DNA from: a virus
Taxonomy: Duplodnaviria; Caudoviricetes
DNA length: 30,415 nt
Direction: 5' to 3' (one strand)
Virus record (IMG/VR): IMGVR_UViG_3300012667_000616
Coordinates: 1 to 30,415 of that record
Shown here: positions 1,890 through 30,415 of the stretch, piece after piece
How positions within the stretch are numbered: the first letter of the stretch is position 1
Layout: every line of letters begins with the position of its first letter
The notes under the pieces: model-generated
What the model was told of the DNA's origin: nothing
The model's input: the letters and a program-made list of their open reading frames with translations, nothing else
Database searches by the model: none
Translations under genes and position numbers: made by a program

Positions 1890-2215
1890 AACCCGTGACA
1901 TATTCAGGTAGTCCACCGGTAACACTCCCTCCGGCTGCCTCTGGAAATCAGGGTTTCCCGTCGTGCTATTTGTCCGGGCGGGAGTAATCAGTCGGCTCGC
2001 AAGAGCGGCAAGCCTTGGAGATGCCAACCGGTCCTAACGCGACAGCCCCGCCGGAATGCTCCAAGGAGCGGGAAACCGCTGTCTGAAAGCGATGGATGGC
2101 TCCATGCGTGGGAGGGCTTGCTCCCTGTAACGGGGACAATGTCTTCACTCAGGATTCACCTTCGCAGGAAGGCTTTGATTCCAACCGCAAGCAATTGAGC
2201 GTCAACGATGACAAA
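1890..2215 (+). ncRNA. Candidate large structured ncRNA of unknown class
   Basis: No credible ORF; many nested stems with GCAA, GAAA and GCAG loops (see findings). Confidence 0.5.
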
Positions 2216-2462
2216 ATCGGTGCTTGACAGACCCCCAAATTTCCCCCTTGTCTATCCCCCTGCTTCGCCTGCCGCTAGTCTCGCCACTGGCAACCAGCGC
2301 TTCAGTAAACCCCAAGGAAATCTTTCCCGCTCAGCAGATAGCCAGTGCGGCCCAACTCTCTCGACGGTCGCCAAGCGTGCGCAAGCTTCGCCACTCGGAT
2401 AGCCGCTAGAACGGCATCACCGCCAGCCTTCTGCCGAGAGTGCGAGATTGATTAACCCCACA

Positions 2463-2975
2463 CTATTGAGACCAGTCTCAACAAGCGTCCACAAGCTGGG
2501 AAATCCCGATAGCATCACCACATCACGATTTGACGATACGTTGCCACCATTGGCGCTAGGATGCCGCCAGATTGACGATTGATGGCAAGGCCGACCAGCC
2601 ACGGCAACCGGCAACCGTCAACCGTCAAGGCAAGGGGAATGGGCGGGAATGAGGTGGGGTAACCGGTTCCGTGGTCCGACGGAGTGCCACGCGACGCGCA
2701 CGCGAGGGCCACTGACACCAGCCATTCCCCCGTCAAACATGACCGATGGTGACAAATGGCGATACAATGACGCCAAATGACCGTGGTGTTCTCAATAGCG
2801 ATTACAACTCGTTGGTAATCATTGGAGCATTCTCAATAGCCACCACGCTTTATGCTTATTGTCACAAGTTTACCAAGTTGAGCAACTCACTAAGGATTGG
2901 AGCATGGGGGGGAGGGGGTCGCAATTAAGGCCGGCGTTTTCCCCGGGACCCGTCCACCTGCCATTTAAAAAAATC
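2463..2975. repeat. Repeat-rich non-coding region, candidate packaging/terminus or origin region
   Basis: TTGAGAC-CA-GTCTCAA palindrome (2466-2481), 4x CG(G/T)CAA(C/G) (2602-2629), 2x TTCTCAATAGC (2789, 2830), 2x ATTGGAGCAT (2821, 2896), G7AG5 (2906-2918), downstream A-tract. Confidence 0.55.
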
Positions 2976-3015
2976 GCCAAAGGGGCGGCCTTGATTGCCG
3001 GCGCTGACTTTGCCG

Positions 3016-3050
3016 TTGACATTGAGGGGTTAGCCGTGTAATCACGGGGC
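3016..3050 (+). promoter_or_regulatory. Promoter for a probable leaderless late transcript
   Basis: TTGACA-17 nt-TAATCA, with ATG 6 nt downstream. Confidence 0.5.
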
Positions 3051-3320: not shown

Positions 3321-5533
3321 TGAGTAGGTGGAGTGATTCGCTGGACGATGCGGTTGCCGATGACGGTGATCGTGCGTTTCTTGGCATTCAGGCGAGGCTT
3401 GAGGCTGACCAGTTGAATCCGGGGCAGGTTTCCATTTCGGAGAATGGCCGAATGGATCGCGGCAGTTGGCAGACACGGCGGGCCATTGAGACGGTAAGCG
3501 GGGCGCTTGAGGTGTCGGGGAACCCCGTGACATTGCCATTTACGATTGAGGATGACTCGCTTGAACCGCTGGCAATATTTCTGGATGACACTGCCGTTTC
3601 GACGATTCTTGGAAGCTGCTTGTTTTCTGATCCGTCGCAGGAGTCGGCGGAATCCGTGGTGATTGCGGCAAATGGAAAAGCTTTTGCGGTTGATGTGGCG
3701 AGCGGGGTTTCGTCCGATATTGAATACCCGACCGGAGAAACACTTTCCGGGGACGTTGACTTGATCCAAGCGTTTGACCGTGTGACGCTATTTCGCAGGG
3801 GGTCGCAAGCGTGGGAGTGGTATGGCACGCAAGGGCGGGCGGTAACATCGGCGGTCTTGGCGTCGAACGTGGTGACGGTGAACTTGAAGGACCACGGATT
3901 AACGGTTGGTGATTCCATTGTCCTGTCCGGTATTGGCTATGCGACCACAAATCCGAATGGAACTCGGGTTGTAACCGGGCTTGGCACGGCGGACACGTTT
4001 ACTTTTGCGCTGACGGGAGCGAATGAGACCTTTACGGCTGGCACAGGAGTAGCGGTGACGGGGTTTACAAAAGTAAGGGCTGGCACGCTTACTCAGCCGC
4101 AGGTTTTTGAGGTTGATTCGTCTGATGCTGATGTAAGCGGGGGGCTTGCTAGTTTTGCGGTATCGGCAAACACGACAATTGCGGCAGGTGACACGATTCG
4201 CGTTTACGACGCGACCGATGAACACTTTACTAGCTTCATTGGCAAGAAATTCACTGTCACAAGTGCGACCGCTTCGCTGATTCAGTTTTATATTCCAACC
4301 GGAGACCACGACGGAAGCGGGCATTCAGATTTCGTTTCCATAGGAAAAGAAGTTTCAATCGGCGCAGGGTTTATGAACATGCCCGCGCCGCCGTGGGGGG
4401 TGTATCACCAGCGCCGTATGTGGGTGCCTTTCTGGTATGGTCAAACCGGGACAACGGCCAGCCCGGTGTTTACAGATCGAAAGATTCGGGATGAAATCGC
4501 GGTTTCTGACATCCTCGACAACCTGACGTATGACCAAATAGCAAACCAGTTTCGAGTTACCGCTGGCATTGCCGACTTTACGGTTGCAATGCAGCCCTTT
4601 TACGAGGATGGGATGATTGTTTTCAATCGGAACTCAATGCATTTGATTTCCGGCGTGTCTGGCGGGTTGTCGGATACCACCGTGAATGAGCTTACCCGCG
4701 AAATTGGGTGCCTTGCGCGGAAGTCGATTGCGCAGCGAGGGCCGGAAATTCTATTTTTGAGCGATAATGGGGTATATTCGGTTAGCTTTCTTGACCAATA
4801 CAACCTGCGGGGCGTAGATTTGCCGCTATCTGACGCGATTCAGCCGACAATTGACCGGATAAACCGTTCGTTGGCGTCAAATGCGGTCGGGGCTTACTTT
4901 GATAACCGCTATTTCCTTTCCGTGCCGCTGGATTCCACGCCGGGAGAAGGTGACGCAACGGGAAACAACTCGATTTTGATTTACAATTTCCTGAACAAGT
5001 CGTGGGAAAGCGTTGATTCGGTAAATGACAGTCGGTGGAATGTCCTAAATTTCCATATTGCAAGGAGTGGCGACCGAAACGACCTTTATGCCGTGAACGA
5101 CTTGGGAGGACTTCACCGGATTGACTCTTCGGATTCTGATTCCGATGTTTTGAGTATTGTGCCGGGCGAGTCATCGACGGGCGTTCCGATTCGATCCAAA
5201 ATCGTAACGCGTCGATACACCATGGGCGACTTGGGGCGCAAGAGATTTTCAGAGTTGCAATTGCAGATCGAAAGTAGTAATTCAATGGCGACCGATGGAA
5301 CAATTTCAATCCAGACTGAAGACCCTGACGAGGGGAGCGCCGTGACCGCAATTTCCGATTCATTAGGGCAGCTTCTTGAACCCGGTGAAAGTGCCAGCCT
5401 TCGGTCTCGCGTTGGCGGGTTGAGGGGACACGGCGCAACTATTGAATTTGCGCCGTCATCAGGCAGGCCGAAGCTTAGAAGTGTGAGGGTTTCCGTTACC
5501 GCGATTAACCGCGCAACCGTTGACCAAAAATAA
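3320..5533 (+). CDS. Tail nozzle / tail tubular B / DNA-stabilisation protein (P22 gp10 / T7 gp12-like)
   Basis: 737 aa; beta-propeller-type motifs (EIGCLARKSI, ILFLSDNGVY, LSDAIQPTIDRIN, YFDNRYFL); position before the ejection genes. Confidence 0.75.
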   Translation: MSRWSDSLDDAVADDGDRAFLGIQARLEADQLNPGQVSISENGRMDRGSWQTRRAIETVSGALEVSGNPVTLPFTIEDDSLEPLAIFLDDTAVSTILGSCLFSDPSQESAESVVIAANGKAFAVDVASGVSSDIEYPTGETLSGDVDLIQAFDRVTLFRRGSQAWEWYGTQGRAVTSAVLASNVVTVNLKDHGLTVGDSIVLSGIGYATTNPNGTRVVTGLGTADTFTFALTGANETFTAGTGVAVTGFTKVRAGTLTQPQVFEVDSSDADVSGGLASFAVSANTTIAAGDTIRVYDATDEHFTSFIGKKFTVTSATASLIQFYIPTGDHDGSGHSDFVSIGKEVSIGAGFMNMPAPPWGVYHQRRMWVPFWYGQTGTTASPVFTDRKIRDEIAVSDILDNLTYDQIANQFRVTAGIADFTVAMQPFYEDGMIVFNRNSMHLISGVSGGLSDTTVNELTREIGCLARKSIAQRGPEILFLSDNGVYSVSFLDQYNLRGVDLPLSDAIQPTIDRINRSLASNAVGAYFDNRYFLSVPLDSTPGEGDATGNNSILIYNFLNKSWESVDSVNDSRWNVLNFHIARSGDRNDLYAVNDLGGLHRIDSSDSDSDVLSIVPGESSTGVPIRSKIVTRRYTMGDLGRKRFSELQLQIESSNSMATDGTISIQTEDPDEGSAVTAISDSLGQLLEPGESASLRSRVGGLRGHGATIEFAPSSGRPKLRSVRVSVTAINRATVDQK

Positions 5534-5535
5534 TC

Positions 5536-6216
5536 ATGGCAAAATTTGAAACATCGCAAATTTGGGCGGATGGCGACCAAGTGACATCAACCAAGCTCAA
5601 CCTCGTGATTTCGGGGTTGTCGGCAGGCGCGGACTTGGCGGCGGACGGAACAATTACCGTTTCAAGTGGAGCCATCCGAGTTGGAACCATTACGGCGGGA
5701 AATTACGGCGCGCTTTCCATTCCGACCGCTGCTTATCAGGCTGCTAGCATCACTTCCGCCAAGCTCGCATCCGAAGCAGTGGAAACGGCAAACATCAAAC
5801 TTTTGAACGTGACCGGCGCAACCATTGCGGAGGCCACGATTCCTTGGACCAAGACGCTTGCCGCTGACAGGGCGGTTGCGGCGGACATGCAAGCTGAATC
5901 CGCGGCTCATTTCGTGTCGCCGGACGTTCTGAAGCACCATCCCGGAGTATCGAAGGCCGGTGGCGTTTTGAACATGGCCAGCGGGTCTATTGCCGGCGCT
6001 CATGGGGTTTCATCTAGCGCGAGCGGTTCGTCAACATCGCGAACCGTAACGCTTTCAGCAACAATGGAAAACACCAATTACCGGGTTTTGATTACGCCGG
6101 GCGACACCGGAACCATCGCCAATGCCCCGGTAATTACAGCAAAAACCACTTCGTCCTTTACAATTGCGTCTGGATCAAACACTATTGATTTTTCGGTATT
6201 CGGACAACTTGCATGA
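5536..6216 (+). CDS. Short tail fibre / needle-like structural protein
   Basis: N-terminal GDQVTSTKLN anchor-like motif, ITSAKLA-type repeats, beta-rich C-terminal domain. Confidence 0.65.
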   Translation: MAKFETSQIWADGDQVTSTKLNLVISGLSAGADLAADGTITVSSGAIRVGTITAGNYGALSIPTAAYQAASITSAKLASEAVETANIKLLNVTGATIAEATIPWTKTLAADRAVAADMQAESAAHFVSPDVLKHHPGVSKAGGVLNMASGSIAGAHGVSSSASGSSTSRTVTLSATMENTNYRVLITPGDTGTIANAPVITAKTTSSFTIASGSNTIDFSVFGQLA

Positions 6217-6680
6217 GCGAAGAGTTAGCAGACCCCGACGTTATCGACCACGTGGAGGCCGATCTAATCGCCGAAATTATGGCGGGCGGAAAGATTTTGA
6301 ATGCGCCAGTCCGCGAATACCGCGTTCCCGGCTTGTATGTCCGAGAGACTTTTCTTGAAAAAGGCGCAAAGCTCACAAGCATGATCCACCTTACCGAGCA
6401 TGTTTTCACCATTAGTAAAGGATCGGTTGCGGTAATATCAGAAAACGAGGGGACGTTGATTTATTCCGCCCCCCACACCGGAATCACCAAGCCGCACACC
6501 CGCCGCTTACTTTGTCCGATTGAAGACACGATTTGGACTACATACCATCCCGCTAGCGACGGAGAGACGACCGAGCAAATCGCAGAACGTATTCTTGACA
6601 GTAGAAAAAACCCACTTTTGCCGCCGGATCACCCGCTAATCGGGCAATGGCGGCGAGAACTTAACAAAATCGAATCATGA
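6213..6680 (+). CDS. Cupin-like (RmlC fold) phage protein
   Basis: GLYVRETFL...IHLTEHVFTISKG...WTTYH; ATGA coupling at both ends. Confidence 0.65.
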   Translation: MSEELADPDVIDHVEADLIAEIMAGGKILNAPVREYRVPGLYVRETFLEKGAKLTSMIHLTEHVFTISKGSVAVISENEGTLIYSAPHTGITKPHTRRLLCPIEDTIWTTYHPASDGETTEQIAERILDSRKNPLLPPDHPLIGQWRRELNKIES

Positions 6681-7555
6681 GCTGGGTAGCACTTGGAGTC
6701 GCAGCAGTTGGAGCAGCCGGAACGGCTTATAGCGCATCTCAAGCCGGCGAGGGCGCGCCCGCACAAGTACAAGCCAACCCCGGAAAGTCCCTCTTGCAAT
6801 ACCTCAAGGGGCTTGACCGCGGGCTGCCGCAGCTTCAGCAGATGGAGGCGACATACCGCCCCCAATTCGGTCAATTGAACATTGCCGACCAACAGCAATA
6901 CCTTAACGCGTTGCTCGGCATGGGCGGGCAAGCCGGGACTGAAGCGCAAGGACAGCTTCAACAGCAGCGCGCCGCCGAATACCAAAACATGATCGGCAAC
7001 ACGGGTGCCGTCATGGGATTGCTTGGCGGAATTGACCCTAATAGCCAAATGCTGACCCAGCGCGCAAGCCAGATGGCGGGACAGCGTTTTGATGCGGCGC
7101 AAGGCTTGAATTTTCAAGAGCAACGGGGGGCAACCCAAACCGCACGCGAGGCTTTTGCGTCACGGGGTAGGCTAAACGATACGTCCAGCGTTGCCGCCGA
7201 GGTTCTCGGGCGCGAAGAAGTCTTGCAAAACAAGCGAGCGGAGGCGATGGGAATGGGTCAGCAGGCAATGGGAATGTCGCAAGCCTTCACCTCCCCGGCG
7301 CTTGGAATCCTAATGGGCGCACCGGCAAGCACGGCGCTTGGACAGGATTACGTTTCGCGATCCATGGGAATCATCGGGCAGAATCAACCGCAATTTATTA
7401 ACCCGGATGCCGGAATCAACATGGGCCAACAGAACGCGGCGAACATGAACGCTTACATGCAGGCGCAATCGGCGGCGAAGCAGAATTCAGCGGCGATGTA
7501 TGGGAAAATGGGAAGCTCGCTCATCGATCTAGCCGGAACCATTTATAAAGGATAA
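6677..7555 (+). CDS. Internal virion / ejection (pilot-like) protein
   Basis: Hydrophobic G/A N-terminus MSWVALGVAAVGAAG; Q/A/G/M-rich helical body. Confidence 0.7.
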   Translation: MSWVALGVAAVGAAGTAYSASQAGEGAPAQVQANPGKSLLQYLKGLDRGLPQLQQMEATYRPQFGQLNIADQQQYLNALLGMGGQAGTEAQGQLQQQRAAEYQNMIGNTGAVMGLLGGIDPNSQMLTQRASQMAGQRFDAAQGLNFQEQRGATQTAREAFASRGRLNDTSSVAAEVLGREEVLQNKRAEAMGMGQQAMGMSQAFTSPALGILMGAPASTALGQDYVSRSMGIIGQNQPQFINPDAGINMGQQNAANMNAYMQAQSAAKQNSAAMYGKMGSSLIDLAGTIYKG

Positions 7556-7557
7556 AG

Positions 7558-9609
7558 ATGAGAATTGGCGACACCATTGATCCCCGGTTGAGCGCGGTTG
7601 ACTACTCCGCGTTTCTGAATGCGAACGCCCGCGCAACGCAAAGCATTGGGCAAAGCATCGGATCGGCAATCGGAGCGGTTCAAGACGTTGTTGAGACACG
7701 CAAGAAGAACAAGGATACAGTGAAAGTGTCATCCGACAAGATCGACGCCGCGATCAAGCTTTTCGGGGACCAAGGCGGATACCTAACGGGAATCCGCGAG
7801 TCACTGGAGGACGAGGACACCCCGCTTTCCCAGCGTGCCGCGCTTGGCGGGCAGATTGACGAAATGCTTAATCTTGGGATTGACAAGATGCGGAATGACG
7901 CGCTGATGGACATTCAAGAGCGGCAAGTCACGGTTCAAGAAGGCGAATTTGAAATGCGCAAGCGCGCTGCCGAGTTCCAGCTTGGCACAGCGGAAGAAGC
8001 CCGCGCAGAGCAAGAGCGAATCACCGAGTTCACCGCTCGCCCGATCCTCGAAAACGTCTTGCGCCAAACTCAAGAGGCGGAAGCACGCGGGGAAAGCCCG
8101 CTTATCCCATCAGAAAAACTCAAGCTGGCATTCATGAAATCGCCGAAGGAGCAGTCGCAGATTGCCGCGACGGCTTACCAAGGGCTTCCCAAGCCCCAGC
8201 CGGTTGAGCTTCGGGACATTGAGTTTACCCGCGACGGGCAGGCGATGAAGGGGACGGCGGTTTTCGACCCGAAAGCGGGTGCATTCCAGCTTGTTCCGAT
8301 TCAAGACCCGACCGCTGCCGCTGTCATCGAAACGCTTCCGCAAGGATTGGAGCCATATATCGGGGGCTTCGAAGCGGCAGGCGCGAAATACGGCGTTGAC
8401 CCGAAAGTTCTGGCGGCGATTTCCATGCACGAAACCGCCAACGGAACATCCTCCGCGTTCCGCAACAAGTCGAACGCGATGGGCATTTCCAACGCTTCCG
8501 GCCCGGTCGAAATGGAGAGTGTCGCCGCTTCGATTGACAAGATGGCAAGGCTTCTTGGGTCTACGCAATCGGGACCATACAAGAACGCTCAGACGATTGA
8601 GGAAATTGCCAAGATTTACGCGCCGATTGGAGCTGGCAACGACCCACGCGGGCTTAACAAGCATTGGGTGCAAGGTGTCAAGAAGAACATCGAAAAGCTC
8701 GGCGGAAACCCCGCTGCGCCCGTGCGGATTCAGCCCGGTGCGGGATCAGGGCCTTACGGGAAACGTCCTGATGGGACGGACAAGGGATCTGGTTGGCTAG
8801 GCGAGCTACGGTTGCCGGGTGGTGGAGTCGCGACCGAATACACGATGCAATCTGATGCGGTGAAAGGACCGGACGGGAAGCGTGTTGACTTCCCTACGTT
8901 GGTGCCTACTCTTACAAGGGGGGAAATTGACATGATGGTCAACGACATCATTCCAAATCAAAAAGAAATCCCAGAGCCAATTATTCAAAAAGCCATTGAT
9001 CACGCAAAATCAAAAATAGCATCCGGGAGAAGTGTGTTTGCCCCTCCGACAATTTCGGGCGGTTACGCCGGTTCTGGCATCCAACCGGGCGCTCCAAAAG
9101 CAACGATTACCAAGACCCCGACCGAGCAGGCTATCGACGAGGCCAAGCTGGCGAAGACCAAGGCGGAAGCGGCGGCGGCGGAAAAGACCGCCACGGCAGA
9201 AGCGGGCAAGGCGAAGGCCAAAGCCGACCGGCTTGCGCAGGTTGAAAGCAAGTTCCTGACCAAAGACGGAAAGCCTTCCGATCTTCTACGCAACGCCACA
9301 GGAATCGGCGAGGGCGCGGCATCATTCATGCGGATGAACGCGCCGGAAACGAGGGCAAACCAGAAGGAGCTTGAGCTTGAGCTTTTGGAAACCGACCTTT
9401 TGGAAGCGGCGAAAGACCTCAAGCCTGTTTCGGAAGACGAAATGAAGCAGCTCATGGCCCGCCGTCCGAAGCTTACCGACTCGCCAGAAGAATGGGCTTG
9501 GTTTATCAAGCGCGCTCGCGGCATTCTTGAGTCAGGACAGGCGCAAACGCCATCCGCCAATCCGACACAAGACGAAACGAGCCGCTTGCGCGGAATGCTT
9601 GGACGATGA
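7558..9609 (+). CDS. Ejection protein with a lysozyme-like (GH73 glucosaminidase-like) domain and a second inserted domain
   Basis: FEAAGAKYGVDPKVLAAISMHET...NAMGI...IAKIYAP...NKHW motif at about 8335-8700. Confidence 0.75.
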   Translation: MRIGDTIDPRLSAVDYSAFLNANARATQSIGQSIGSAIGAVQDVVETRKKNKDTVKVSSDKIDAAIKLFGDQGGYLTGIRESLEDEDTPLSQRAALGGQIDEMLNLGIDKMRNDALMDIQERQVTVQEGEFEMRKRAAEFQLGTAEEARAEQERITEFTARPILENVLRQTQEAEARGESPLIPSEKLKLAFMKSPKEQSQIAATAYQGLPKPQPVELRDIEFTRDGQAMKGTAVFDPKAGAFQLVPIQDPTAAAVIETLPQGLEPYIGGFEAAGAKYGVDPKVLAAISMHETANGTSSAFRNKSNAMGISNASGPVEMESVAASIDKMARLLGSTQSGPYKNAQTIEEIAKIYAPIGAGNDPRGLNKHWVQGVKKNIEKLGGNPAAPVRIQPGAGSGPYGKRPDGTDKGSGWLGELRLPGGGVATEYTMQSDAVKGPDGKRVDFPTLVPTLTRGEIDMMVNDIIPNQKEIPEPIIQKAIDHAKSKIASGRSVFAPPTISGGYAGSGIQPGAPKATITKTPTEQAIDEAKLAKTKAEAAAAEKTATAEAGKAKAKADRLAQVESKFLTKDGKPSDLLRNATGIGEGAASFMRMNAPETRANQKELELELLETDLLEAAKDLKPVSEDEMKQLMARRPKLTDSPEEWAWFIKRARGILESGQAQTPSANPTQDETSRLRGMLGR

Positions 9610-12600
9610 CACCCGAAGTCAACAAATTCGCCGCGCAGGTTGCAAAAGGACACGTTGCGCGGTTGGCGGAGCGCGGGGCGAAGCTTGGACCGATTCAGAC
9701 CGAGGAAGACCTTTTTGCGCGGGGATACATCGGCGAAGACGGTCAAGCGACCGACGAAGGCAGTCAGTTCCTAGCTTTGCAGGACGCGGGTATTTTCGAC
9801 GCCAAGGGGCAATTATCACTAAAGGGCGAGGCATTCATCATGCCCACTGAAGACTTGGAAACGGAGGACAAGCTTCCGCATTACATCATGGCGCGAACGG
9901 AGGGGTTGCTTGATCCACCCGAAACGTCATTTGGCGACGCTGCCGGCGCGGTTGGTGAAATGCTGTGGGATGCCGGCGCGGGGTTGCTTAAAGAAATTGA
10001 CGCCAGCTTTTTCCCGTCGGAGAAGAAATCCGCAGAGTCTCAAATTCGGCTCAGGTCGGCGGCGGTTGAATCGGTCAAAGGATCGGCAATGCTTGGCGCT
10101 GGCATCGCCGAAACACTCGCAACCGGAATCAAAATCAACGGCAAGCAAGTCATCCCGGGGATGCTTGACCAGCAAGAAGACCAGCTTGCATATTTTGCCG
10201 CGCAACAAAAGGTGGCGAGGGCAAAACGCGAAATCCAAGACTTTTCAGAAGCGACCGCAACCGCGGCGATTGTTGGATCAATGGATGTTGTCAACGAGCT
10301 TGAGTCCGAAGCTGCAAAACGAATCCAGCAAATCGGACCAGACGCGGCGGCGGCAGCGGTCAAAGAAGGCGCAGGGATTGGCACCATTCTCACGCCGGAT
10401 TCAATGCTTACAGCGGGGACGGGATTCTTTGTTTCAAAAGCCGCGCAAGGACCAACTCTGGCCGCTAGGCTTTCTGCTAAGGTGACGGCAGCAAAAACCG
10501 CAGGCACAGCCGCGGAAGTGGCTGCAAATTCGGCTCAAATAGCGGGAAATAACGTCAAGCGACTTGCGGAAATTGCGGCGAATTCATCAAAACAAGCCGA
10601 TGATTTGGCGGCGATTGGCGACATTCCGGCATCTATTGCGGCGAGGACCACGGCGGAAGCAGCAGGGGCAAGGGCTCAATCCCTAACGAGCGAAGCGGCA
10701 AGGCTTCAGCTTGAAGCGGCAAACAAGGCCAAGCTAGCTGAGGGTCTGGTCAAGAAATCCGGCGGAGCGGAACGTGCGCTTGATTCGCTAAATGCGGTCC
10801 ATCAAGCGAAGGCTATTCCCGCAAACGTCGTTGCCGCCGCCGCCGATAAGGTTGGCGATTTCCTGATTCGGTCGGACGAGCTTTTGCAATCGGCGCTTGA
10901 AAACATCGGGTTTAACGAGGCGACGCGAGGCACGATCAAGGGCGCAATGGTAACAGCTGGCATTGCGTTTCCCGGGGCGGCATCCATTGGCGCTGCACTA
11001 GCATCGGGACCGCTTGTTAAAAACATCGGCAACCTCGCGCGCATGATTGGCAAGGAGCAGCTTGCCGCACGGGGAAGCCTGCCGTTTTGGCGCAGGGTTT
11101 CTCAGAATGCCGGCGCTACGCCATTCACGCGAGGGACAGCGCGCTTTCTCGACTCCGCGACGCTTGGCGGAAAAGCCATGGCACCAGTCCGCATTGCCGG
11201 CCAAACAGCAAAGGGCGTCGGAGCGTCAATCCCGATGGATGTTGGTTTTGAGGTTTTGGCAGAAGGCGGGAACATTTCGGCTAACACAATAAATCAAGGA
11301 GTTGCCGAAAGCCTTGTTTTCGCGGGGACCGGCGGCGCGATGGGATCGCTTGTCTCAGCCCCGTTGCGCGCCAAGCAGCGGCAGCAAATGGGCGATGTAA
11401 TGAACTTCCGTGCTGAGATTCTCGACGACGCATCCCGCCCGGTTTTCGACGGTATGTCCAAAGGGTCTCAGCGGACGCTTGCCACTTACGCGGCGACCAA
11501 TCCGTCGCTCAACATTAAGATTTCATCTGAAGGCCCGAACAAATACGACGCGAAGCTAAACACTGCTTTTGTTAACGTCAAATCCCCGGGATGGATTCGC
11601 CCGCTTGTCGCGCATGAGGTGATGCACCATGTGATCGTCAAGGGGCAGATGAAAGACGGCATTCAAGCTTGGCTTGTCGGAACCCCCGACACTGGCGGAT
11701 TGCTTCGATCTAAAGACGGGAAGCTCGATCCGACATTTGAGGCCGCGATGAGTGCTTACAACCGGCGACTAGAGCAGGAAGGCAAGATTCCGCTTTCGGT
11801 TGAGGACTTCGCGGAGGAGTATTTTATCGAGTCCGCGGTTGATGATTTTGTTGGAATGGCGGATTCTGGCGAGCTATCCAAGCTTGCGGCGCGCTCCCCG
11901 CTTGAGCGGTTGGTCGGCGACACCGCGCGAATCCTAATTCCCAAAATCCCGCTCATTCGCGACATCGCGGTAAAGCTTGGCGGGGCATACGACAATTCAG
12001 GCAAAATGGTTCAAGGGAATGGACTTCTTGCTGATGGTGTCCGCGAGCTACCCGGCGCGAAAGCCATGATCCGTCAAATGGTCCGCATTTCCGCGGGCGA
12101 AACAACCATTGAACAGGGCGGAACCAGAAAAAGAGGCGGGGCGGATGAAGAGAGGGGACCGGGAATTCCGCTCAATCTGCTAAAGAACAACCCAGCGCTT
12201 GCCGAATCCAATTTTTCGGTTTTTCAGTTTGACGAAACGGGAAATCTGAAAACGGACAAAGACGGAGTCCCTTTGTTCATCACTAAAGAACAAGACATTC
12301 AGCGCCAACTTGGCGGAATCGCGGTTGCAGAGTATTACACCGAAAAAGTCAAGCAAGGAAATCTTTTGCCGGGAGAGCTTTCGCCGCAACCAGACGGAAC
12401 GTGGGAGGGCGCGTGGATCGACAACAAGGCAATTGACGCGTTGGCGAAATCGGGTGTTTTCGACCAACGGAGCATCCGCCACCTCAGGCTGATGAACGCG
12501 GCGGCCAAGAAGCCGGACGGGTCAACATTTATGGGTGTAAATCACCCGGCAACGATTAAGCGTCCCGGCAAGCGGGCTGAATACGGGACACTTTCAGCCA

Positions 12601-13085: not shown

Positions 13086-13674
13086 CCGCAAAATGCAAGA
13101 CGTTGAACCCGTCTTTACGGAAGAGCTACAAGAGTTCGCGGTTATCATCGCCGAACGGGGGCGAGACAAGCCCAATAGCGCCATTGAGCGGAAGAATCCG
13201 ATGCTTGCCGCGATGGTCCTTGAAATGCGGGCGCGGTCTGTCCCCATGCGGAAGATCAAAGCCGAGACCGGCGTTGACTTCGCCGCGCAGATTCGGCTTG
13301 AGCGCGCCCACGCGGAGCCGATGGAGAAATGGAGAAAGCGGGCGGCGGAAGCCATGGCGCACACCTCCGACCTTGCGCGAAACGTCCTCAACGAAAAGCT
13401 CCACATGCTGCTTGACGACGAGGAGTCGCTCAGATCGACCCGCGTTTCGGAAATCGCCGTTGCAATGGGCGTTTCGACTGATAAAACGATGGCGCTGTCC
13501 GGCATTCCGTCCATGACCATCGAACACAAGAAAGGCGCTTCCCTTGACGATGCGCGGAAGATGATCGAAGCGGCCAAGCAGAAAGTCGCCGAACGGTTGC
13601 GCGGCGATGCTATAGAGGCGACGGTAATTGAAGGTCCAAGCGCGGGCGCGTATTTTGCAAGGGGGGCGGACTAA
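13078..13674 (+). CDS. terS: Probable terminase small subunit
   Basis: Directly upstream of and TAATG-coupled to terL; HTH-like segment plus helical oligomerisation-like region; start moved to ATG 13078. Confidence 0.55.
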   Translation: MSDRKMQDVEPVFTEELQEFAVIIAERGRDKPNSAIERKNPMLAAMVLEMRARSVPMRKIKAETGVDFAAQIRLERAHAEPMEKWRKRAAEAMAHTSDLARNVLNEKLHMLLDDEESLRSTRVSEIAVAMGVSTDKTMALSGIPSMTIEHKKGASLDDARKMIEAAKQKVAERLRGDAIEATVIEGPSAGAYFARGAD

Positions 13675-15677
13675 TGATTACCTTTGCCGAGCATCCAATC
13701 CTCAAGCCGCCAACGGACGAGGAATTGGCAGCGATGGAACCGGAAGAGCTTATCGAGCTTCACCGGGTTTATCATGAGGCACTTGCTAACGCGCAATCAG
13801 ACCCTTACCGCTACGGATTCAAGCCCGACAACTGGAACAAGGCGGGCGAGCTTTGGGATGACTTTAACGAGTTGCTTGTGCTAGGTGGAAACCGCTGCTT
13901 GGCACCGGATCAAGAAATCTTTGACCCGGTTGCCAAGGTATCGCGCCCCGTCAGTCAGATTGACGGGCCATTTCACGTTTGGGCGTGGGATGGTCAACGA
14001 AAAGTGGTAGCTTTTGCTGAGAAGCCATTTCGGAAGCCTCAAGCAGAGATTTTCCGAGTTTCTTTAGATAACGGCGAAGCTCTGAGTTGTTCAGCGGCTC
14101 ACTTGCTCCTGACTCCCGACGGATGGAAGCCTTTAGGTGCGCTCTCGCCCGGCGATGCTCTGGTGAGTTCCGAGCCCGAATCTAGAACCGTTAGAATTTC
14201 ATGGATTGGACACCTCCGAACGGATTGGGTGTGGGATTTTACCGTTCCCACATACGAGAATTACGTCGCGGCTGGCGTCGTTTCCCACAATTCATCGAAA
14301 ACCCGCTTTGGCGCATGGGCGGTTGTCAAAGCCGCCATAGAAAACCCCGGCAGCATCATCTATTGCTTTTGCCAAAACGCGGAGGCGTCGGAAAAGCTGC
14401 AGCAGCCCGCCGTTTACGAATGGTTGCCGTCCGAATACAAGGCGAAGCAAACCAGCGAATCGGCTTACATTAGCTTTTCGCAGAAGAACGGATTCACGGG
14501 CGGCGACTTCATCTTGCCTAACGGAAGCCGCGTCATCTTCAAGACCTACACACAGTATTTGCAAAACCCGACGATTCTGGAAGGCGCGGAACTAGGAAGC
14601 CGGTCGCCCGAATGGCAGAATATTGGGGTTTGGCTCGACGAGTATCTTGTTGGACCCGAGCTGATTTCAACGCTCCGATTCCGACTTGCGACCCGTAACG
14701 CGAAGATGCTTGTTACGTTCACCCCGATTGACGGTTGGACGGAAGTAATCAAGGACTTCCTCGACGGCGCGGCGACACTTGAGCGCAAGCCTGCCGAACT
14801 GCTACAGGGGGAGCTTGTCCCGTTCATCCAAAAGAGCAAGAACCGCAGCGCGGGCATCATTTACTTTCATTCGCAAGACAACCCATTTGGCGGTTACGAG
14901 CGGATCAAGAAAGACCTTGCCGGACGGTCCCGCGAGGACATCCTCATTCGCGCCTATGGCGTGCCAGTCAAGTCCGCCGCAACCAAATTTCCCAAGTTCT
15001 CAACAGACACAAACGTCATCCCGCACGACAAGATTCCGACCGAGAATGTCTCACGGTTTCAGATCATTGACCCATCGGGCAGCAAGAACTGGTTTTGCGT
15101 ATGGATCGCCGTTGACATTACCGGCACGTATTACGTTTACCGTGAATGGCCGGGTGTCAACGTCGGTGATTGGGCCGAGTGGAGAAGCGGGAAATGGATG
15201 CCGGGCGAGGGGGCGAAGGGGCTTGGCTACGGCATCCGGGATTACGTCGATTTGTTCTTGTCCATGGAGGGCGGCGAAAAGATCGAAGAAAGACTAATCG
15301 ACCCGCGACTTGGGGCGGCGAAATACACCGCAAACGACCACGCCAGCAGCATCATTGAGGACTTGGCGGATCAAGACTTCATTTGCATCCCAGCGCCCGG
15401 ATTGGAGATCGACGACGGACTGCAAGCTCTCATTTCAAAGATGAGCTATGACACCTCAAGGCCGCTCGACGCGATGAACCGTCCGCGATTCTACATTTCA
15501 GAACATTGCGACAATACGATTCGCGCACTTGGGGAATACACGGCGGAAGCAGGGCTGAAAGAGGCGTGGAAAGACCCGATTGATTGCCTCCGATATGCTT
15601 GCGTTTCCAATATCGAGCATTTCGACGGGTCCGCCCGATGCACTGTGCAAAGGACATCGAAAGTTGGCGGGTATTGA
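13674..15677 (+). CDS. terL: Terminase large subunit interrupted by an intein
   Basis: Walker A GGNR/SSKT, Walker B VWLDE, motif III VTFTP, RNase H-like IIDPS and DPIDCLRY. Confidence 0.95.
   Translation: MITFAEHPILKPPTDEELAAMEPEELIELHRVYHEALANAQSDPYRYGFKPDNWNKAGELWDDFNELLVLGGNRCLAPDQEIFDPVAKVSRPVSQIDGPFHVWAWDGQRKVVAFAEKPFRKPQAEIFRVSLDNGEALSCSAAHLLLTPDGWKPLGALSPGDALVSSEPESRTVRISWIGHLRTDWVWDFTVPTYENYVAAGVVSHNSSKTRFGAWAVVKAAIENPGSIIYCFCQNAEASEKLQQPAVYEWLPSEYKAKQTSESAYISFSQKNGFTGGDFILPNGSRVIFKTYTQYLQNPTILEGAELGSRSPEWQNIGVWLDEYLVGPELISTLRFRLATRNAKMLVTFTPIDGWTEVIKDFLDGAATLERKPAELLQGELVPFIQKSKNRSAGIIYFHSQDNPFGGYERIKKDLAGRSREDILIRAYGVPVKSAATKFPKFSTDTNVIPHDKIPTENVSRFQIIDPSGSKNWFCVWIAVDITGTYYVYREWPGVNVGDWAEWRSGKWMPGEGAKGLGYGIRDYVDLFLSMEGGEKIEERLIDPRLGAAKYTANDHASSIIEDLADQDFICIPAPGLEIDDGLQALISKMSYDTSRPLDAMNRPRFYISEHCDNTIRALGEYTAEAGLKEAWKDPIDCLRYACVSNIEHFDGSARCTVQRTSKVGGY
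13896..14291 (+). mobile_element. Mini-intein (132 aa) in the TerL P-loop
   Basis: Begins CLAPDQ; block B SAAHLLLT; block F VWDFTVP; ends SHN followed by Ser+1; no endonuclease domain. Confidence 0.92.
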
Positions 15678-23091: not shown

Positions 23092-25329
23092 ATGTCTGAC
23101 GTTCGACTTTACCCGCTTAATAAAATTGCCGCGCTTTCCCAAAAAGAAGACAAATCAATTCTTGTCGTAACGGATGGGACCGGATCGGATTTGGAAGCGT
23201 CAACAATTCGCGAAGCGCTCGATCTGGCCGGTCACATCGGCGTCCCCCCGACCCGGCCAGAGTCGATCCTCTTCCGCGACCTCGGCGGCGGGGACAACGT
23301 CAACATCGCGGCGGCGGGCACTCGCGCCGTCGATCCGGGGCCGGGCACGATTACCGTCGCGACCCTCGGCGGGAACTCCACGGCTCGATACGAAAACGGG
23401 CGGCTCTATCTGACCGCCGCCGGAACGGGCAGCGTCCACGCAATCGCCCACACCGGCCTCGTCAACATCACCGCCGGACTCACGCTGGTATGCCGAATTA
23501 TCCCGGCCGCGACACCGGGTCAAACTATCAACAATAGCATCGGTTTTAACCACAACACGACCGGATTCACGCCCCGTCGCGGGAATGTTCAAATAACATC
23601 GTCCCGGACCTCGGGCGACCTCACGCTGTCCGTCTCTAACGGCGCGTCCGCCTCTGACGACTCCTCGTTCGCGGTCGGTGCCGGGATTATCCGCCCCGGC
23701 GAGGAAATCGCCGTCGCGGTCCACCACAAGAGCCTGACCGAGCAGGAGTATTACATCCAAGGCGGGCAAGCCGCCGATTTTGGCGCAGAACTCGGCAGCG
23801 AGAACTGGTATCTCATCGGGCGGACCTCGGTTGATAACACCGGCCAGACCGCCTACCCCGGCGTCGGCGTCCAGTTCGCAGGCACCGCCGTCATCCGCTC
23901 GCTCGAATTGTTTTCCGACTGGTCTCCCTCGCCGCGCTGCCAGACGTTCGACCTCGATCGCGCAAAAATCGGCGTCCACATCCCGACGCTGGAGCGCGAC
24001 CCGGCGACGGGCTTGATGGTCCATGCGTGGAACAATGGGGAATCGCACTGGAGCACCGGCCAGACGGCTATCCGGGCGAGCGTCAAGCTCGCCAGCGGGC
24101 AGTGGTCCGCGCCTCAAACATTGATCGCGGCGCTGCCGCTGCCGCAGCAGCTCCACATCGCGACGATGATCCCCATCGGCGGCGTCCTTAACCTCCTATG
24201 GATCTACGCTGCCGACCGCGCGCTGACCCCGAACATCATCTATCGCGCGCCGATGACGATCAACTCCACGACCGGCGCGATCACTCTCGGGGCTTCGGTT
24301 GTCATCGACATTCCAGCCTACGCATTCCCGATGAATAGGGGCGTCGTCCTGCCATCGGGTCGCGTGCTGATCCCGTCTCACAACGCGTCAAGCGTTGCGT
24401 ATGTTTCCTACACGGACAACGGCGGAGCGACATGGACCCACGGTGTCTGCAACACAACCCCCTCGTTGGTCGAGGGGGGATTAATTGTCGAGGATGACGG
24501 CGCGGTCGGTCAGTATTACCGGCCGTTTAACGGTCAGTCCTCGGTCTATTATCAGCGATGCGCCGACCCCAACGCGGCGACGCTGGTATGGTCCACTCCG
24601 GTCAAAATCGACGCGCTGCCGAACCCAATCGTGCCGGTCGCCGGCAGTCGCGTCACGCCGCTGCGACTGAGCAATGGTCGCAAAGTCCTTATTGGCAACG
24701 ACTCGAAAATCGCCCGCCGCGAAGTCGCGATTTGGGAAATCGGCGACAACGGCGAGGTGCTCGACAAGGTCCGAATCGGCAATGTAGGACGCCATCCGTC
24801 TCCGGTCAGCGGCGAGCAGATTTTCCAGTATCCGATGATCGCCGAGGATGGCGACGACCTACTCATCGCCTACAGCCATCAACCGACTGGCGGTGCCTCG
24901 ACCTCCGCGTCATGCATCCGCGTCCACGCATGGCGCTGGACGGACCCGCTGGCCCGCGAGGCTGGCGGCACTGGTCGCCGCGACCGGGATCTTGTCATCC
25001 CGACCGCTCGCCAGCCCCGGCAGCGGGTCGCGAACATGGACTATGCCGCGACGATGACGCTGGACATGTCGCTGGCCTCGCTGTTCTACGTGACGCTGAC
25101 CGGGACCCCCGCGACCGGATTTGCCGCCCCGCTCAACCCGCTGCCGTGGGAGGAGCTGACGCTCGTCATCATTCAGGGGGGCTCCGGCAGCTACACCGCC
25201 GCCTTCAACGCGATCTACGAATTCGGAGGAGTCGCCGCGACATGGCAGACCGCCGTGGGGGCCGCGAACATCCTCCGGGCGATCTACAACCCGATCCAAA
25301 ACAAGTGGCGGGTGACAGGCTTCCTCTAA
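23092..25329 (+). CDS. Tail spike / receptor-binding protein with a sialidase-like (BNR) propeller
   Basis: HIPTL (RIP-like), Asp-box SYTDNGGATW, FQYPMI; N-terminal lectin-like beta domain; tail-fibre-type C-terminal domain. Confidence 0.75.
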   Translation: MSDVRLYPLNKIAALSQKEDKSILVVTDGTGSDLEASTIREALDLAGHIGVPPTRPESILFRDLGGGDNVNIAAAGTRAVDPGPGTITVATLGGNSTARYENGRLYLTAAGTGSVHAIAHTGLVNITAGLTLVCRIIPAATPGQTINNSIGFNHNTTGFTPRRGNVQITSSRTSGDLTLSVSNGASASDDSSFAVGAGIIRPGEEIAVAVHHKSLTEQEYYIQGGQAADFGAELGSENWYLIGRTSVDNTGQTAYPGVGVQFAGTAVIRSLELFSDWSPSPRCQTFDLDRAKIGVHIPTLERDPATGLMVHAWNNGESHWSTGQTAIRASVKLASGQWSAPQTLIAALPLPQQLHIATMIPIGGVLNLLWIYAADRALTPNIIYRAPMTINSTTGAITLGASVVIDIPAYAFPMNRGVVLPSGRVLIPSHNASSVAYVSYTDNGGATWTHGVCNTTPSLVEGGLIVEDDGAVGQYYRPFNGQSSVYYQRCADPNAATLVWSTPVKIDALPNPIVPVAGSRVTPLRLSNGRKVLIGNDSKIARREVAIWEIGDNGEVLDKVRIGNVGRHPSPVSGEQIFQYPMIAEDGDDLLIAYSHQPTGGASTSASCIRVHAWRWTDPLAREAGGTGRRDRDLVIPTARQPRQRVANMDYAATMTLDMSLASLFYVTLTGTPATGFAAPLNPLPWEELTLVIIQGGSGSYTAAFNAIYEFGGVAATWQTAVGAANILRAIYNPIQNKWRVTGFL

Positions 25330-27551: not shown

Positions 27552-27775
27552 ATCCGCCAGAGACAGCGCCAAGAGACTGCATCATTCTAGCGGATTTCGG
27601 CTGGCCTTGGATTCTCCCGGCGCGATGGAATCCGATTGATGGCAAGTGGGCGACCGTCACGCTGCAATGCGGGCCAGTGGATGGCCAGTGGGAGGACTAC
27701 TATTTCGAGTCCGAGCAAGAGCTGGATTCTGACCTTAAAGGCTGGCTGCCGACGCCGGTTGTTGCGCGAAGGTAA
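27548..27775 (+). CDS. DUF551-like small protein
   Basis: PETAPRD...GWLPTP termini; ATGA coupling. Confidence 0.65.
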   Translation: MNPPETAPRDCIILADFGWPWILPARWNPIDGKWATVTLQCGPVDGQWEDYYFESEQELDSDLKGWLPTPVVARR

Positions 27776-27844
27776 GCCGGGGCCGGGAATCGAACCCGGA
27801 GCAATCGCCTTGAGACGATCATGTTACCATTACACCACCCCCGC
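27775..27844 (-). tRNA. Degenerate tRNA (Gly-like body, 6-nt anticodon loop)
   Basis: GCGGGGG/CCCCGGC acceptor (G3:G70 mismatch), D-arm GTGT-AATGGTA-ACAT, perfect T-arm CCGGG-TTCGATT-CCCGG, U73; anticodon arm ATCGT-CTCAAG-GCGAT. Confidence 0.7.
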
Positions 27845-28009: not shown

Positions 28010-28146
28010 TGCTAGAACCGGCAAGCCGATTCCGTAATTGATTCGCCACGTGGGCGATCAATGCGCAACCCAAGCACAGCGCTTGCAGGTTGTCAACGCC
28101 GAATCCGGTCAAGATTTTTCCGCGAGTATGACACAAATTCTTTTTC

Positions 28147-28184
28147 CGAATTTTCTAGCCATGGCGAAAACGGCGAGGTAGGTT
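28147..28184 (+). promoter_or_regulatory. Early-type promoter (third copy)
   Basis: CGAATTTTCT identical to 851-860; TAGCCA-17 nt-TAGGTT; GGTAGGTT shared with 880-887. Confidence 0.6.
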
Positions 28185-28207
28185 CACGGCGTCAACCGCA
28201 ACACGCC

Positions 28208-28402
28208 ATGAGCCACACCGAGCTAGTCGCCGAACAAAAAGCCGCCATCCTTTCCGGTAAAATCACCGTCCGTTGGTCGCAAGCTCGCGCAGGATTCACC
28301 ATCCGTAGCGGACGCTCGCAGGTTGTCGGAACCGAATCATTCAGCTCCGAGACTGACGCTTGGGAGTGGCTTCTCGAAACCCACGGCATCGCCCGCCCTT
28401 AA
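28208..28402 (+). CDS. Small early hypothetical protein
   Basis: ATG 28208 downstream of the promoter. Confidence 0.6.
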   Translation: MSHTELVAEQKAAILSGKITVRWSQARAGFTIRSGRSQVVGTESFSSETDAWEWLLETHGIARP

Positions 28403-28868: not shown

Positions 28869-29047
28869 AAACTTACATAATCGCATCCGCCGTGCTCGCC
28901 GTCGCGTCCGTCGCGCTGGCGGTCGCGGGATGCCCGGCAATCGTCGTATCGTCATGCATCGCTGTCTCACTGGCGTCGCTGCTGGCTTGCAAGTCGGAAT
29001 CCGGCATTGCGGCCGAGAACGAGGAATTTAGCCGCTGGAAACGATGA
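28865..29047 (+). CDS. Small membrane protein (two TM or lipoprotein)
   Basis: Hydrophobic; VAGC possible lipobox; ATGA coupling. Confidence 0.6.
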   Translation: MKTYIIASAVLAVASVALAVAGCPAIVVSSCIAVSLASLLACKSESGIAAENEEFSRWKR

Positions 29048-29358
29048 CACCAGAAGCACAACGAATCGCGATTGCAGAGGCTTGCGGGTGGAATCGAGAG
29101 GACTCTTTGTTCTGCCGCGCTCAAGGATGGCGAGGGCCTCAAGGCCAGTGGTATTCTCCGCTGCCGCCCGATTACATCAACGACCTCGACGCAATGCACG
29201 AAGCGGAGAAAGTAATTCTTGACAATTGTGGAACTTGGACGCGTTACGTAACTGAACTCAAGTTTCAATCAGCGAAAAATGGAATACCTCACTTCCATTT
29301 GACCGCCGCCCAACGAGCCGAAGCGTTCCTGCGAACCCTCAACCTCTGGCAAAAATGA
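29044..29358 (+). CDS. Phage ABA-sandwich-like hypothetical protein
   Basis: AIAEACGW...PDYINDLDAMHEAE...TAAQRAEAFL pattern. Confidence 0.6.
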   Translation: MTPEAQRIAIAEACGWNREDSLFCRAQGWRGPQGQWYSPLPPDYINDLDAMHEAEKVILDNCGTWTRYVTELKFQSAKNGIPHFHLTAAQRAEAFLRTLNLWQK

Positions 29359-29669
29359 CATTGTGGGCTAAGCGAACCGACGCGAACCACGCAGAGATCC
29401 GCGACGCGATGCGGGCGGCAGGCGCGGAGGTTGAGGACCTGAGCGGCTGCGGAAAGGGGATGCCGGACACGCTGGTGCTTACGATGGACGGCAGGCTACT
29501 CTTGGTCGAAATCAAGACCGCCACCGGCAAGCTGACCGCGCCGCAAGTGAAGTTCCACGCACGATTCCCGGTTTACGTGATTCGGAGCGTTGAGGAAGCG
29601 GTCAAGCTAATTGCGAACGCAATAGGTGACTCGCGGCGAGCGGGAAGCCCGAATCAACAAGGCGGCTAG
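29355..29669 (+). CDS. VRR-NUC / PD-(D/E)xK nuclease
   Basis: RTDANH, GMPD, LVEIK and LTAPQVKF motifs; stop lies inside the attC-like site. Confidence 0.8.
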   Translation: MTLWAKRTDANHAEIRDAMRAAGAEVEDLSGCGKGMPDTLVLTMDGRLLLVEIKTATGKLTAPQVKFHARFPVYVIRSVEEAVKLIANAIGDSRRAGSPNQQGG

Positions 29670-29699
29670 TCGCCGTCGATGTCCACCGTCTTGTTGGGC
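29612..29699 (-). mobile_element. attC-like site (inverted relative to genes)
   Basis: TGCGAAC-6 nt-GGTGAC...GTC(C)ACC-5 nt-GTTGGGC; attC-type 6/5 spacing with an extrahelical base; inner GCGGCGA/TCGCCGT. Confidence 0.75.
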
Positions 29700-29730
29700 A
29701 TCTTTGAGTCACTAACCAACCCCAATAAAT

Positions 29731-30054
29731 ATGATCGCCACGACCCACCAAATAGACGCCGCAATCGAGGCATACCAACGCAAGCGCGAACCTCACGGCG
29801 ACTCTCAGAATCACCGTGACGCACTCGGAGACGCTCTTCGCACCGTGCGCCCGTTCAAGTCCATGGAACTCCTGACCGCGGAAACCGCTTACGGGCATCA
29901 CCGATCCCCCGCAAGATGGGATGGCGTGCCGTGGGGCGAGTGCGGCACGAAGAACCACCGCGCCGGAATCCGCGCCGCTCTTAATTCTCTGCACAACGTC
30001 CGCCCTCTGGCACCTGCCGACAATCAAACTCCAAAACAAAATGGCCACTCCTAA
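29731..30054 (+). CDS. Cassette-borne hypothetical protein
   Basis: 107-aa ORF between two attC-like sites; stop lies in the loop of the second. Confidence 0.65.
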   Translation: MIATTHQIDAAIEAYQRKREPHGDSQNHRDALGDALRTVRPFKSMELLTAETAYGHHRSPARWDGVPWGECGTKNHRAGIRAALNSLHNVRPLAPADNQTPKQNGHS

Positions 30055-30115
30055 CGACATCCCAGCGCCGACGAAACCACTGATGGCAGGTTGCCAGCAG
30101 GAGCCTTGTTCTCTG
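29991..30115 (-). mobile_element. attC-like site (inverted) with a long variable loop
   Basis: GCACAAC-6 nt-CCT.CTGGCA.CCTGCC ... GGCAGG(T)TGCCAG(C)AGG-6 nt-GTTCTCTG; 15-bp stem with two extrahelical bases. Confidence 0.75.
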
Positions 30116-30415
30116 TCTTCGACGCCGGACACCGATGCGGTGAAGGTGAATCAAGGCCGAGGAATCTGGATCGTGAACGCCGAATACATGGCCGAAATGG
30201 AACGGCAACGTGACATACTCAAGGCCGCTGGATACGTGCTGAAGGAAGCCGTCGAAAAGCTACTGGATAGCGACGAGCAACTGAAGACGACGACCGACGA
30301 GGATCTTGAGCAAGCGATGGAAAACGGCTACGCGGCGGAGATCCGAACGCAGGCCGAAACCATCCTGCTCGCCCGGAAAGCTATAGGGATGACGAACTAC
30401 CTATTTCCAGAGAAC
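30041..30415 (+). CDS. Cassette-borne hypothetical protein, truncated by the window end
   Basis: Open for 125 codons (MATPNDIP...STPDTDA...AEMERQRD...LFPEN); starts inside the attC-like loop. Confidence 0.65.
   Translation, partial: MATPNDIPAPTKPLMAGCQQEPCSLSSTPDTDAVKVNQGRGIWIVNAEYMAEMERQRDILKAAGYVLKEAVEKLLDSDEQLKTTTDEDLEQAMENGYAAEIRTQAETILLARKAIGMTNYLFPEN

Follow-up and report, generated by a model that had tools for sequence, protein, structure and literature searches.

The window, by which we mean the whole stretch of DNA analysed here, is an entire IMG/VR record of 30,415 nt. It is a linear viral contig, ~82% complete by estimate, from a freshwater phage (the habitat evidence comes from pieces found in runs X1-X4, and the small-share runs X2-X5 and X13 contribute short pieces only). 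Among the 40 ORFs scanned of the 215 listed are genes for a major capsid protein, tail proteins, an amidase endolysin and a metallophosphoesterase. A run of small co-directional genes extends from ~28200 to a VRR-NUC nuclease gene (29355-29669), and the array with which we are concerned here occupies the record's very end.

Several other features of the record are of interest in their own right: (i) a tRNA gene (27775-27844, - strand; Rfam 47.1 bits) lies between the late genes and the early run; (ii) three promoter-like stretches (800-916, 1190-1272 and 28090-28210) are alike and lie upstream of small genes, and X5 pieces share parts of them with other contigs; (iii) early and late genes are separated by ~1.3 kb without a convincing ORF (1720-3050), in which there are terminator-like hairpins as well as short repeats and which may hold the origin or a genome end; (iv) a 667-aa protein (13674-15677, + strand) shows a weak, sub-cut-off Pfam match for intein splicing at residues 178-206 and is possibly a terminase or other protein with a mini-intein; (v) a 745-aa protein (23092-25329, + strand) with a BNR/sialidase-like repeat domain is probably a tail spike; and (vi) the gene at 29044-29358 belongs to a widespread mosaic small-protein family, its blocks 29044-29092, 29167-29210 and 29302-29358 being common to many unrelated lake contigs while the sequence between them differs.

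Two attC sites and a probable third

The features on which the following rests are these:

29355-29669, + strand: VRR-NUC endonuclease gene (Pfam PF08774, over cut-off); a non-cassette gene by R-box pairing
29616-29695, + strand: core of attC site 1; bottom-strand geometry on the coding strand; predicted crossover AA/C at 29617/29618
29618-29996, + strand: cassette 1 (379 bp), site 1 and the downstream gene body; unit defined from homologous cassettes
29731-30054, + strand: cassette 1 gene, 107 aa; opens after site 1, reads across the AAC of site 2 in frame and ends in the loop of that site
29995-30110, + strand: core of attC site 2; polarity as site 1; gene 1 stops and gene 2 starts within the loop
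29997-30414, + strand: cassette 2 (418 bp), site 2 and the downstream gene body; R boxes pair 8/8
30041-30415, + strand: cassette 2 gene; the window encodes 125 aa of it, and protein P0021 has 141 aa; ATG in the loop of site 2
30409-30415, + strand: R box closing cassette 2; a probable third attC opens with its AAC and extends past the record's end
776-823, + strand: possibly a short attC in decay, situated across the assembly gap from the array; ORF 362-802 ends in it, with an in-frame AAC and a loop that contains the stop

Site 1 consists of AAC, a 6-nt spacer, a 15-bp stem, a 5-nt spacer and GTT, and its 3' arm carries an unpaired C, T and T after 3, 3 and 3 bp, respectively. Site 2 has a 15-bp stem between spacers of 6 and 6 nt, with an unpaired C after 3 bp and an unpaired T 6 bp further in, again on the 3' arm. 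Both thus exhibit the features that define attC, namely invariant AAC/GTT R boxes, unpaired 5-6-nt spacers, a paired L stem and extrahelical bases on one 3' arm. Since these unpaired bases lie on the 3' arm of the + (coding) strand, the + strand is the bottom strand. The original prediction had correctly placed an extrahelical C at 3 bp and missed this polarity; the spacers of site 2, for which it had allowed 5-6 nt, are 6 and 6. The first unpaired base is in both sites a C and not the G of the classical bottom-strand consensus, and according to the portions of PMC2727003 drawn on here a G-to-C change at this base lowers recombination by IntI1 only 2.7-fold, its identity thus not being essential to that enzyme.

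On both strands of the whole window, sites 1 and 2 are the only ones of such geometry with a stem of at least 9 bp, and 60 dinucleotide shuffles gave 13 hits, none longer than 13 bp, versus 15 bp in both real sites. A covariance model built exclusively from 50 chromosomal attC sites of Luteolibacter-family genomes, the E-values of which are rough, matches site 1 (29612-29699) with 55.6 bits (E 1.8e-13) and site 2 (29991-30114) with 35.6 bits (E 4.4e-8), both on the + strand; the third-ranked of its 17 matches in the window reaches only 13.1 bits. Geometry, shuffles and host-attC model hence confirm that two attC-type palindromes lie where they had been predicted, and, as judged from their sequence, both are attC of the type that stands beside IntI in Verrucomicrobiales chromosomes. 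With two complete sites 300 nt apart, and a third probable, the cluster has the two or more attC sites that mark a CALIN. The arm pattern of site 1 recurs in 17 viral and 58 metagenome stretches, its exact left-arm pattern having 0 hits in viral contigs, and the arms of site 2 recur in L033 and L035, where they precede other genes.

It was likewise claimed that R boxes pair better across each gene than within a site, and this holds in the sequence: those around cassette 1 pair at 7/8 positions and those around cassette 2 at 8/8. Such cross-gene pairing also bears on whether the palindromes might be RNA-level elements (terminators, processing signals or translation-coupling hairpins) or products of chance, a reading of practically negligible probability. 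It is true that the sites overlap stops and starts, and that folding with flanks reveals no unusual stability (z -1.46 for site 1, the minimum-energy fold of which differs from the attC fold, and -0.04 for site 2); these z-scores are uninformative as a test of attC identity, and for the bare cores the stem-pair probability is 0.76-0.96. Chance, however, is excluded by the shuffles and the host model, the Rfam search of the window found no family except the one tRNA, and invariant AAC/GTT, fixed unpaired bases and cross-gene pairing are features of DNA recombination.

The AAC is read in frame in all three cases that the window offers. The VRR-NUC gene enters site 1 in frame at the AAC, from which its last 18 codons run into the loop, where the gene stops; the closest upstream partner of its R box, a 7-mer, is 3.5 kb away. 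The cassette 1 gene starts 36 nt past site 1, unlike 73 of 83 viral cassettes, in which the start lies inside their own site. In relatives of its protein the C-terminus switches at the Asn codon of the AAC, and a homolog (79%) is encoded in a prophage-like gene run without attC in Luteolibacter pohnpeiensis, where an AAC occupies the same codon at which the phage version meets the site, and where no site is present. Cassette 2 keeps the rule of a start within its own site, which encodes ~23 N-terminal residues of the protein; P0005-P0009 have this site-encoded N-terminus in common, and their bodies are unrelated. PHROGs and Pfam hold no family for either cassette protein, and searches with them yielded 0 loci each in a set of viral contigs from which the phage's own genome may be absent. 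As a separate observation, in a frameshifted relative of the cassette 1 protein (P0018) the frame stays open across a site and joins that of the following cassette gene, so that a 213-aa fusion results.

A third attC likely follows 30415, its left arm being deduced from translation. On a 63,038-nt contig, protein P0021 is identical to all 125 residues of the window's last protein and then continues for 16 more, and P0022, from a 4,553-nt contig of run X1, has the same tail. Because this tail resembles translated left arms (7/10 residues match the in-frame translations from three complete sites), the left half of the site predicted at this position is supported; the window itself stops at the AAC of this site. 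A further, short imperfect hairpin at 776-823 is possibly a decayed attC. It is borderline, with a relaxed score of 12 versus 7 hits of at least 12 in 40 shuffled windows and a model E of 1.3, and a search for a partner R box found none.

Strand, reading frame and unit of exchange

The polarity of the window recurs among its relatives. In 88 viral loci, found by three site patterns, the ORF of distinct cassettes lies on the strand bearing the unpaired bases in 76 of 92 cases and on the opposite strand in 2; in most of the 14 tied cassettes the ORF starts in the site. Host cassettes behave as in classical integrons, with the ORF opposite the unpaired-base strand in 37/41. The 58 metagenome loci are mixed (35 same strand, 11 opposite, 9 tied), as expected from phage and host contigs together. 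A first unpaired C is the rule in both groups (123/154 viral and 50/57 host sites). In a typical cassette the ORF is on the top strand, upstream of its own attC; here it is on the bottom strand, downstream of its own site and overlapping it, and because gene polarity departs in this way from the usual arrangement we do not speak of a typical cassette array. The strand assignment is supported by Pfam, which on the coding strand assigns a family to 27 of 113 cargo proteins (86 have none); their domains mostly start at residue 23-56, right after the site-encoded leader. DNA-modifying enzymes (C5, N6/N4, Dam, MT-A70 and Mom) make up 23/113, 21 of them over cut-off, in a sample in which one of the three site patterns may favour methylase cassettes. 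One stretch of the viral collection (L042, 1407-2006) has its cassette ORF on the top strand, and is either a piece of a host array or a host cassette inserted antisense.

The overlap of gene and site has a fixed frame. The crossover AAC is in frame 0 in 88 of the 91 viral cassette genes that reach it, and among 147 viral sites of at least 75 nt a stop is present in frame 0 in 143, versus 66 and 86 in the other frames; the 52 host sites, with stops in 40, 38 and 32 across the frames, exhibit no such bias. Viral cassette genes start within their own site in 73/83 and stop in the next one in 61/83. We infer that attC doubles as a translation module: an upstream gene would read through AAC as Asn and stop in the loop, in which the next gene usually opens. 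Owing to the fixed frame, cassettes could be joined in any order and each would still have a proper stop and a start coupled to it, all within a single early operon transcribed from a phage promoter. The reversed polarity, along with this in-frame overlap of gene and site, is the novel part of the array.

Which unit moves is indicated by homologous bodies in different settings. In 26 such pairs the upstream site is kept in 23, the sequences differ from the first base past the closing AAC in 22, and both flanks differ in 16; the loci having been picked by site patterns inflates the agreement of upstream sites, and several pairs are near-duplicates, but neither circumstance explains the sharp change after the closing AAC. 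L175 and L203 share one 100% identical cassette with wholly different flanks on both sides, and L116/L153 and L104/L138 show recent cassette gains among near-identical genomes. R boxes agree at all four variable positions (4/4) across the gene in 76/92 viral cassettes and within a site in 6/92; a partner R box is present downstream of 49/59 last sites and upstream of 21/54 first sites. The pattern of breakpoints and R boxes fits cutting at AA/C on the coding strand, and, as these comparisons indicate, the cassette unit is a site followed by a gene body that moves precisely between arrays. The comparison of breakpoints in relatives, named as a test when the array was first proposed, thus came out in its favour, since homologous viral and metagenome cassettes switch neighbours at AA/C.

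These data also bear on the canonical alternative, in which the coding strand is the top strand, the right arm is cut at G/TT and each gene forms a cassette with the site downstream of it. It would accommodate one site-encoded N-terminus before many different bodies, and a short X1 contig does diverge directly after GTT 29695. Moreover, the non-coding strand folds equally well or better: the coding strand gives the stabler fold in 60/154 viral sites (host 42/57) and in neither window site. The choice of strand would hence rest on the unpaired bases. Yet identical bodies keep the upstream site (23/26) and lose the downstream one (22/26), in host arrays that adjoin IntI it is the non-coding strand that has this geometry, and the host model matches the + strand, so that we regard the canonical arrangement as most unlikely.

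Not every exchange falls at AA/C. The X1 contig identical over 29670-30415 diverges where the right arm of site 1 meets the loop; P0001 and P0021 differ only before the right arm; L135 has a 98% identical body behind a site different from those of L210/L227; and the site arms of L034 are mismatched. A second, minor route, homologous or involving the other strand, probably swaps loops and arms. One may go further and regard the hairpins altogether as conserved linkers of inherited integron appearance, which phage annealing proteins or host homologous recombination swap and on which IntI no longer acts. Exchanges inside sites, recombination-type genes and an SSB gene adjoining arrays, and the 15 of 17 near-complete viral records that are devoid of an IntI-profile match speak for this reading. 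On the other side, the flanks of identical cassettes diverge on either side at the very first base beyond AAC, which leaves no homology to anneal, cross-gene R-box pairing (76/92) would be useless without a circular intermediate, and the arrays have attI-like ends and adjoining IntI-like genes (see below). We therefore consider it unlikely that the hairpins are such linkers, and have good confidence that the array consists of real attC sites and would work like an integron cassette array with mirror polarity. Among the contigs, neither an excision circle nor a recombination joint was seen.

attI-like ends, integrase genes and host integrons

An attI-like motif, drawn after inspection of host and viral sets and modelled on the junction between host array and intI, is present at 24 of 60 terminal junctions, at none of 72 junctions into full sites, and at 76 of 8,995 AAC overall in the loci. 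A search of 50 viral records (of 89 loci with sites, obtained from L010 and three pattern searches) with the IntI profile gave 4 strong matches, 1 of them over cut-off. In G070, G081 and the complete genome G090 an IntI-like gene starts within ~50 nt of the last array junction, is co-directional with the cassette genes and has genes for replication and recombination around it; the one in G065 lies 7 kb from the array. G070 combines an IntI over cut-off with an attI-like junction, G090 has the junction and a match below cut-off, and G081 has an IntI-like gene without the motif. A quick tree, from which G090, G065 and one host row are omitted, places G070 and G081 among host IntIs and apart from Xer-like rows, G081 on a long branch; given this long branch and the missing rows, we make no claim on the origin of phage IntI. 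Since attC, attI and intI stand in their usual relation in these phages, only the genes are flipped.

A six-frame search of the window found no tyrosine recombinase, in agreement with the earlier remark that no integrase is in view. That remark holds for the sequenced 82%; the record breaks off where three related phages carry an IntI-like gene. With the gap exactly behind the array, absence of an integrase is unproven for this phage, and since the record stops inside its own array the phage's own intI may sit in the gap. Joining the window's end to its start was considered and rejected: there is no terminal repeat of 8-199 nt, the record is listed as linear and 82% complete in IMG/VR, and the 4,553-nt X1 contig, identical over 29670-30415, continues for ~3.1 kb before a match to 276-314, with none on 1-275. 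On these grounds a sequence gap remains.

The host, which from one homolog in L. pohnpeiensis and the likeness of the sites to the host model is probably a verrucomicrobium, would then belong to a group with integrons of its own. The L. pohnpeiensis genome encodes an IntI over the NCBIfam cut-off, as do 25 of the 61 Luteolibacter-family genomes overall. From 20 reference regions (15 beside an IntI match, the other 5 from contigs of L. pohnpeiensis in which the arm motif is frequent) we collected 57 distinct sites of the same geometry, the stems of which covary (93.9% paired versus 63.4% shuffled, for sites selected for pairing). These sedentary chromosomal integrons of Verrucomicrobiales resemble the phage arrays in (i) site geometry, 6/5 spacers and first unpaired C, (ii) cross-gene pairing, (iii) the attI-like junction, and (iv) the relative orientation of attC, attI and intI. 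However, host integron genes are read away from intI, on the top strand, whereas phage genes lie on the bottom strand and point to attI and intI; the sites and bodies of the phages are shorter (medians 90 vs 117 nt and 304 vs 492 nt, respectively); and phage sites, unlike the host sites, carry starts and in-frame stops.

Such resemblance might suggest that the array descends from a single capture, in whatever orientation, of a dead host-integron fragment, with phage genes arising in it or drifting into it later. The sites are indeed near host attC, the hairpin at 776-823 may be a decayed site, and prophages with captured host integron pieces are described in the portions of PMC9892861 drawn on here. 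Viral cassette bodies, however, have no match in the host array DNA sampled (20 regions) beyond weak methylase hits, which fall in one site-less region; the frame-0 stop and in-loop starts are phage-specific; and many unrelated viral contigs share and shuffle the design, with recent gains in L116/L153 and L104/L138. A captured dead piece thus appears very unlikely. Among loci fetched via the neighbouring phosphoesterase gene, 2 of 31 have model hits within 10 kb; because these are partial genomes, no array frequency is claimed.

Proposed mechanism and relation to published systems

IntI cuts the folded strand that bears the unpaired bases on its 3' arm, at AA/C, and in a cassette circle the two R boxes that flank the gene are paired, which explains why R boxes pair across genes. 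The most coherent reading of the locus, which we hold to be highly likely, is therefore a phage integron-type array in mirror polarity, in which a cassette is a site plus a gene and is exchanged at AA/C by an IntI from the host or encoded in the phage's sequence gap. The original suggestion that cassettes are shuffled by a host or off-window IntI-type recombinase thereby gains support, both from the likeness of the sites to host attC and from the neighbour changes at AA/C. During phage replication the coding strand of a site would fold and be cut by IntI at AA/C; recombination between two sites would free a circle consisting of a site and a gene; and for its re-entry this circle would use an attI-like end, another site or a secondary AAC. 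The entry point of new cassettes would be the attI-like junction at the promoter-distal end of the array.

Ordinary phage genes could become cassettes through insertion of a site on both sides. Candidate traces of such births are site 1 itself, located at an in-frame AAC of the VRR-NUC gene without a nearby partner R box, and the Luteolibacter homolog of gene 1, which has the AAC and no site. IntI insertion at minimal targets is known from the parts of bioRxiv 10.1101/2022.09.11.507474 used here (Loot et al.), where it concerns attG; the minimal GWT target would explain the presence of site 1 at the AAC of a non-cassette gene. The attG events, however, bring ordinary cassettes into bacterial chromosomes and do not build arrays from phage genes.

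Why the genes are reversed can only be speculated upon. A cassette that passed from host to phage, or from phage to host, would end up antisense; and should transcription and fork movement be co-directional, recombination would take place on the template of the lagging strand, an orientation which is the opposite of the excision-limiting one in the passages of PMC5371416 drawn on. GC skew gives no indication of the direction of replication in the window. In its widest form, to which we incline by a small margin over doubt, the proposal is that Verrucomicrobiales phages possess a mirror-image integron of their own, with a separate cassette pool and with fixed-frame attC sites that supply stop, start and N-terminus, served mostly by host IntI and in some phages by an intI behind attI at the operon's end, and with cassettes born when an ordinary phage gene receives a site at an in-frame AAC close to its end.

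Integrons are regarded as bacterial tools, and if this proposal is true, the recombinase also serves phages, which use it in arrays rich in DNA-modifying genes to shuffle accessory genes and genes for counter-defence, and host cassettes that enter remain antisense in the phage. Many host integron cassettes are reported, in excerpts of the literature, to be anti-phage defences. A precise mechanism would then be available for mosaic early regions, and one would understand why many unannotated phage proteins have short termini in common (P0005-P0009). To our knowledge, how integron cassettes are born is still open; here, cassette birth becomes testable, since gene 1 is found without attC, and with an AAC at the same codon, in a prophage-like region of Luteolibacter. 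A natural attC that encodes protein ends in a fixed frame would also be useful for cassette engineering.

Phage CALINs as such are already known. In the consulted portions of Qi, Rajabal, Ghaly, Tetu and Gillings 2023 (PMC9892861), 17 CALINs are reported in 10,705 phage genomes and IntI1 recombined 5/6 phage attC sites; these are attC clusters without adjoining IntI, and, as among the relatives of the window, DNA methyltransferases are part of the cargo. The same portions present TJE1 and PH101 as typical arrays and do not describe bottom-strand genes, site-encoded gene ends or attI-like ends in virulent phages. In our own check the TJE1 array has canonical polarity, whereas by inspection the MW202573 array from the same set has bottom-strand geometry on the coding strand, with one model hit. 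The reversed design thus seems to be present in the data of Qi et al. and to have passed without remark in those portions; for P12002L, their text notes two sites on opposite strands, as we find too. In MW202573 (L245, 2066-3750), the coding strand carries the classical G, and a methylase frame seems to open in the upstream site, before the annotated start.

Similar in layout are the inverted-integrase integrons of the Treponema group (Cury et al. 2016, PMC4889954, as excerpted here), in which intI is likewise co-directional with the cassette genes. In those integrons it is intI that is flipped relative to attC, whereas in the phages intI and attC keep their usual relation and the genes are flipped. 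The sections of Cury 2016 and Ghaly 2021 drawn upon do not describe a reversed cassette design, and a search of open-access PMC and bioRxiv papers (subscription journals lying outside it) found no description of reversed phage cassettes. Virus Rctr41k (L246, KX853513), found via phage IntI, was set aside as an example of the reversed design, its genes being on the top strand. It has, at 4680-10100, an IntI-like gene followed by at least six sites of attC geometry with a first unpaired C, the integrase being co-directional with the genes.
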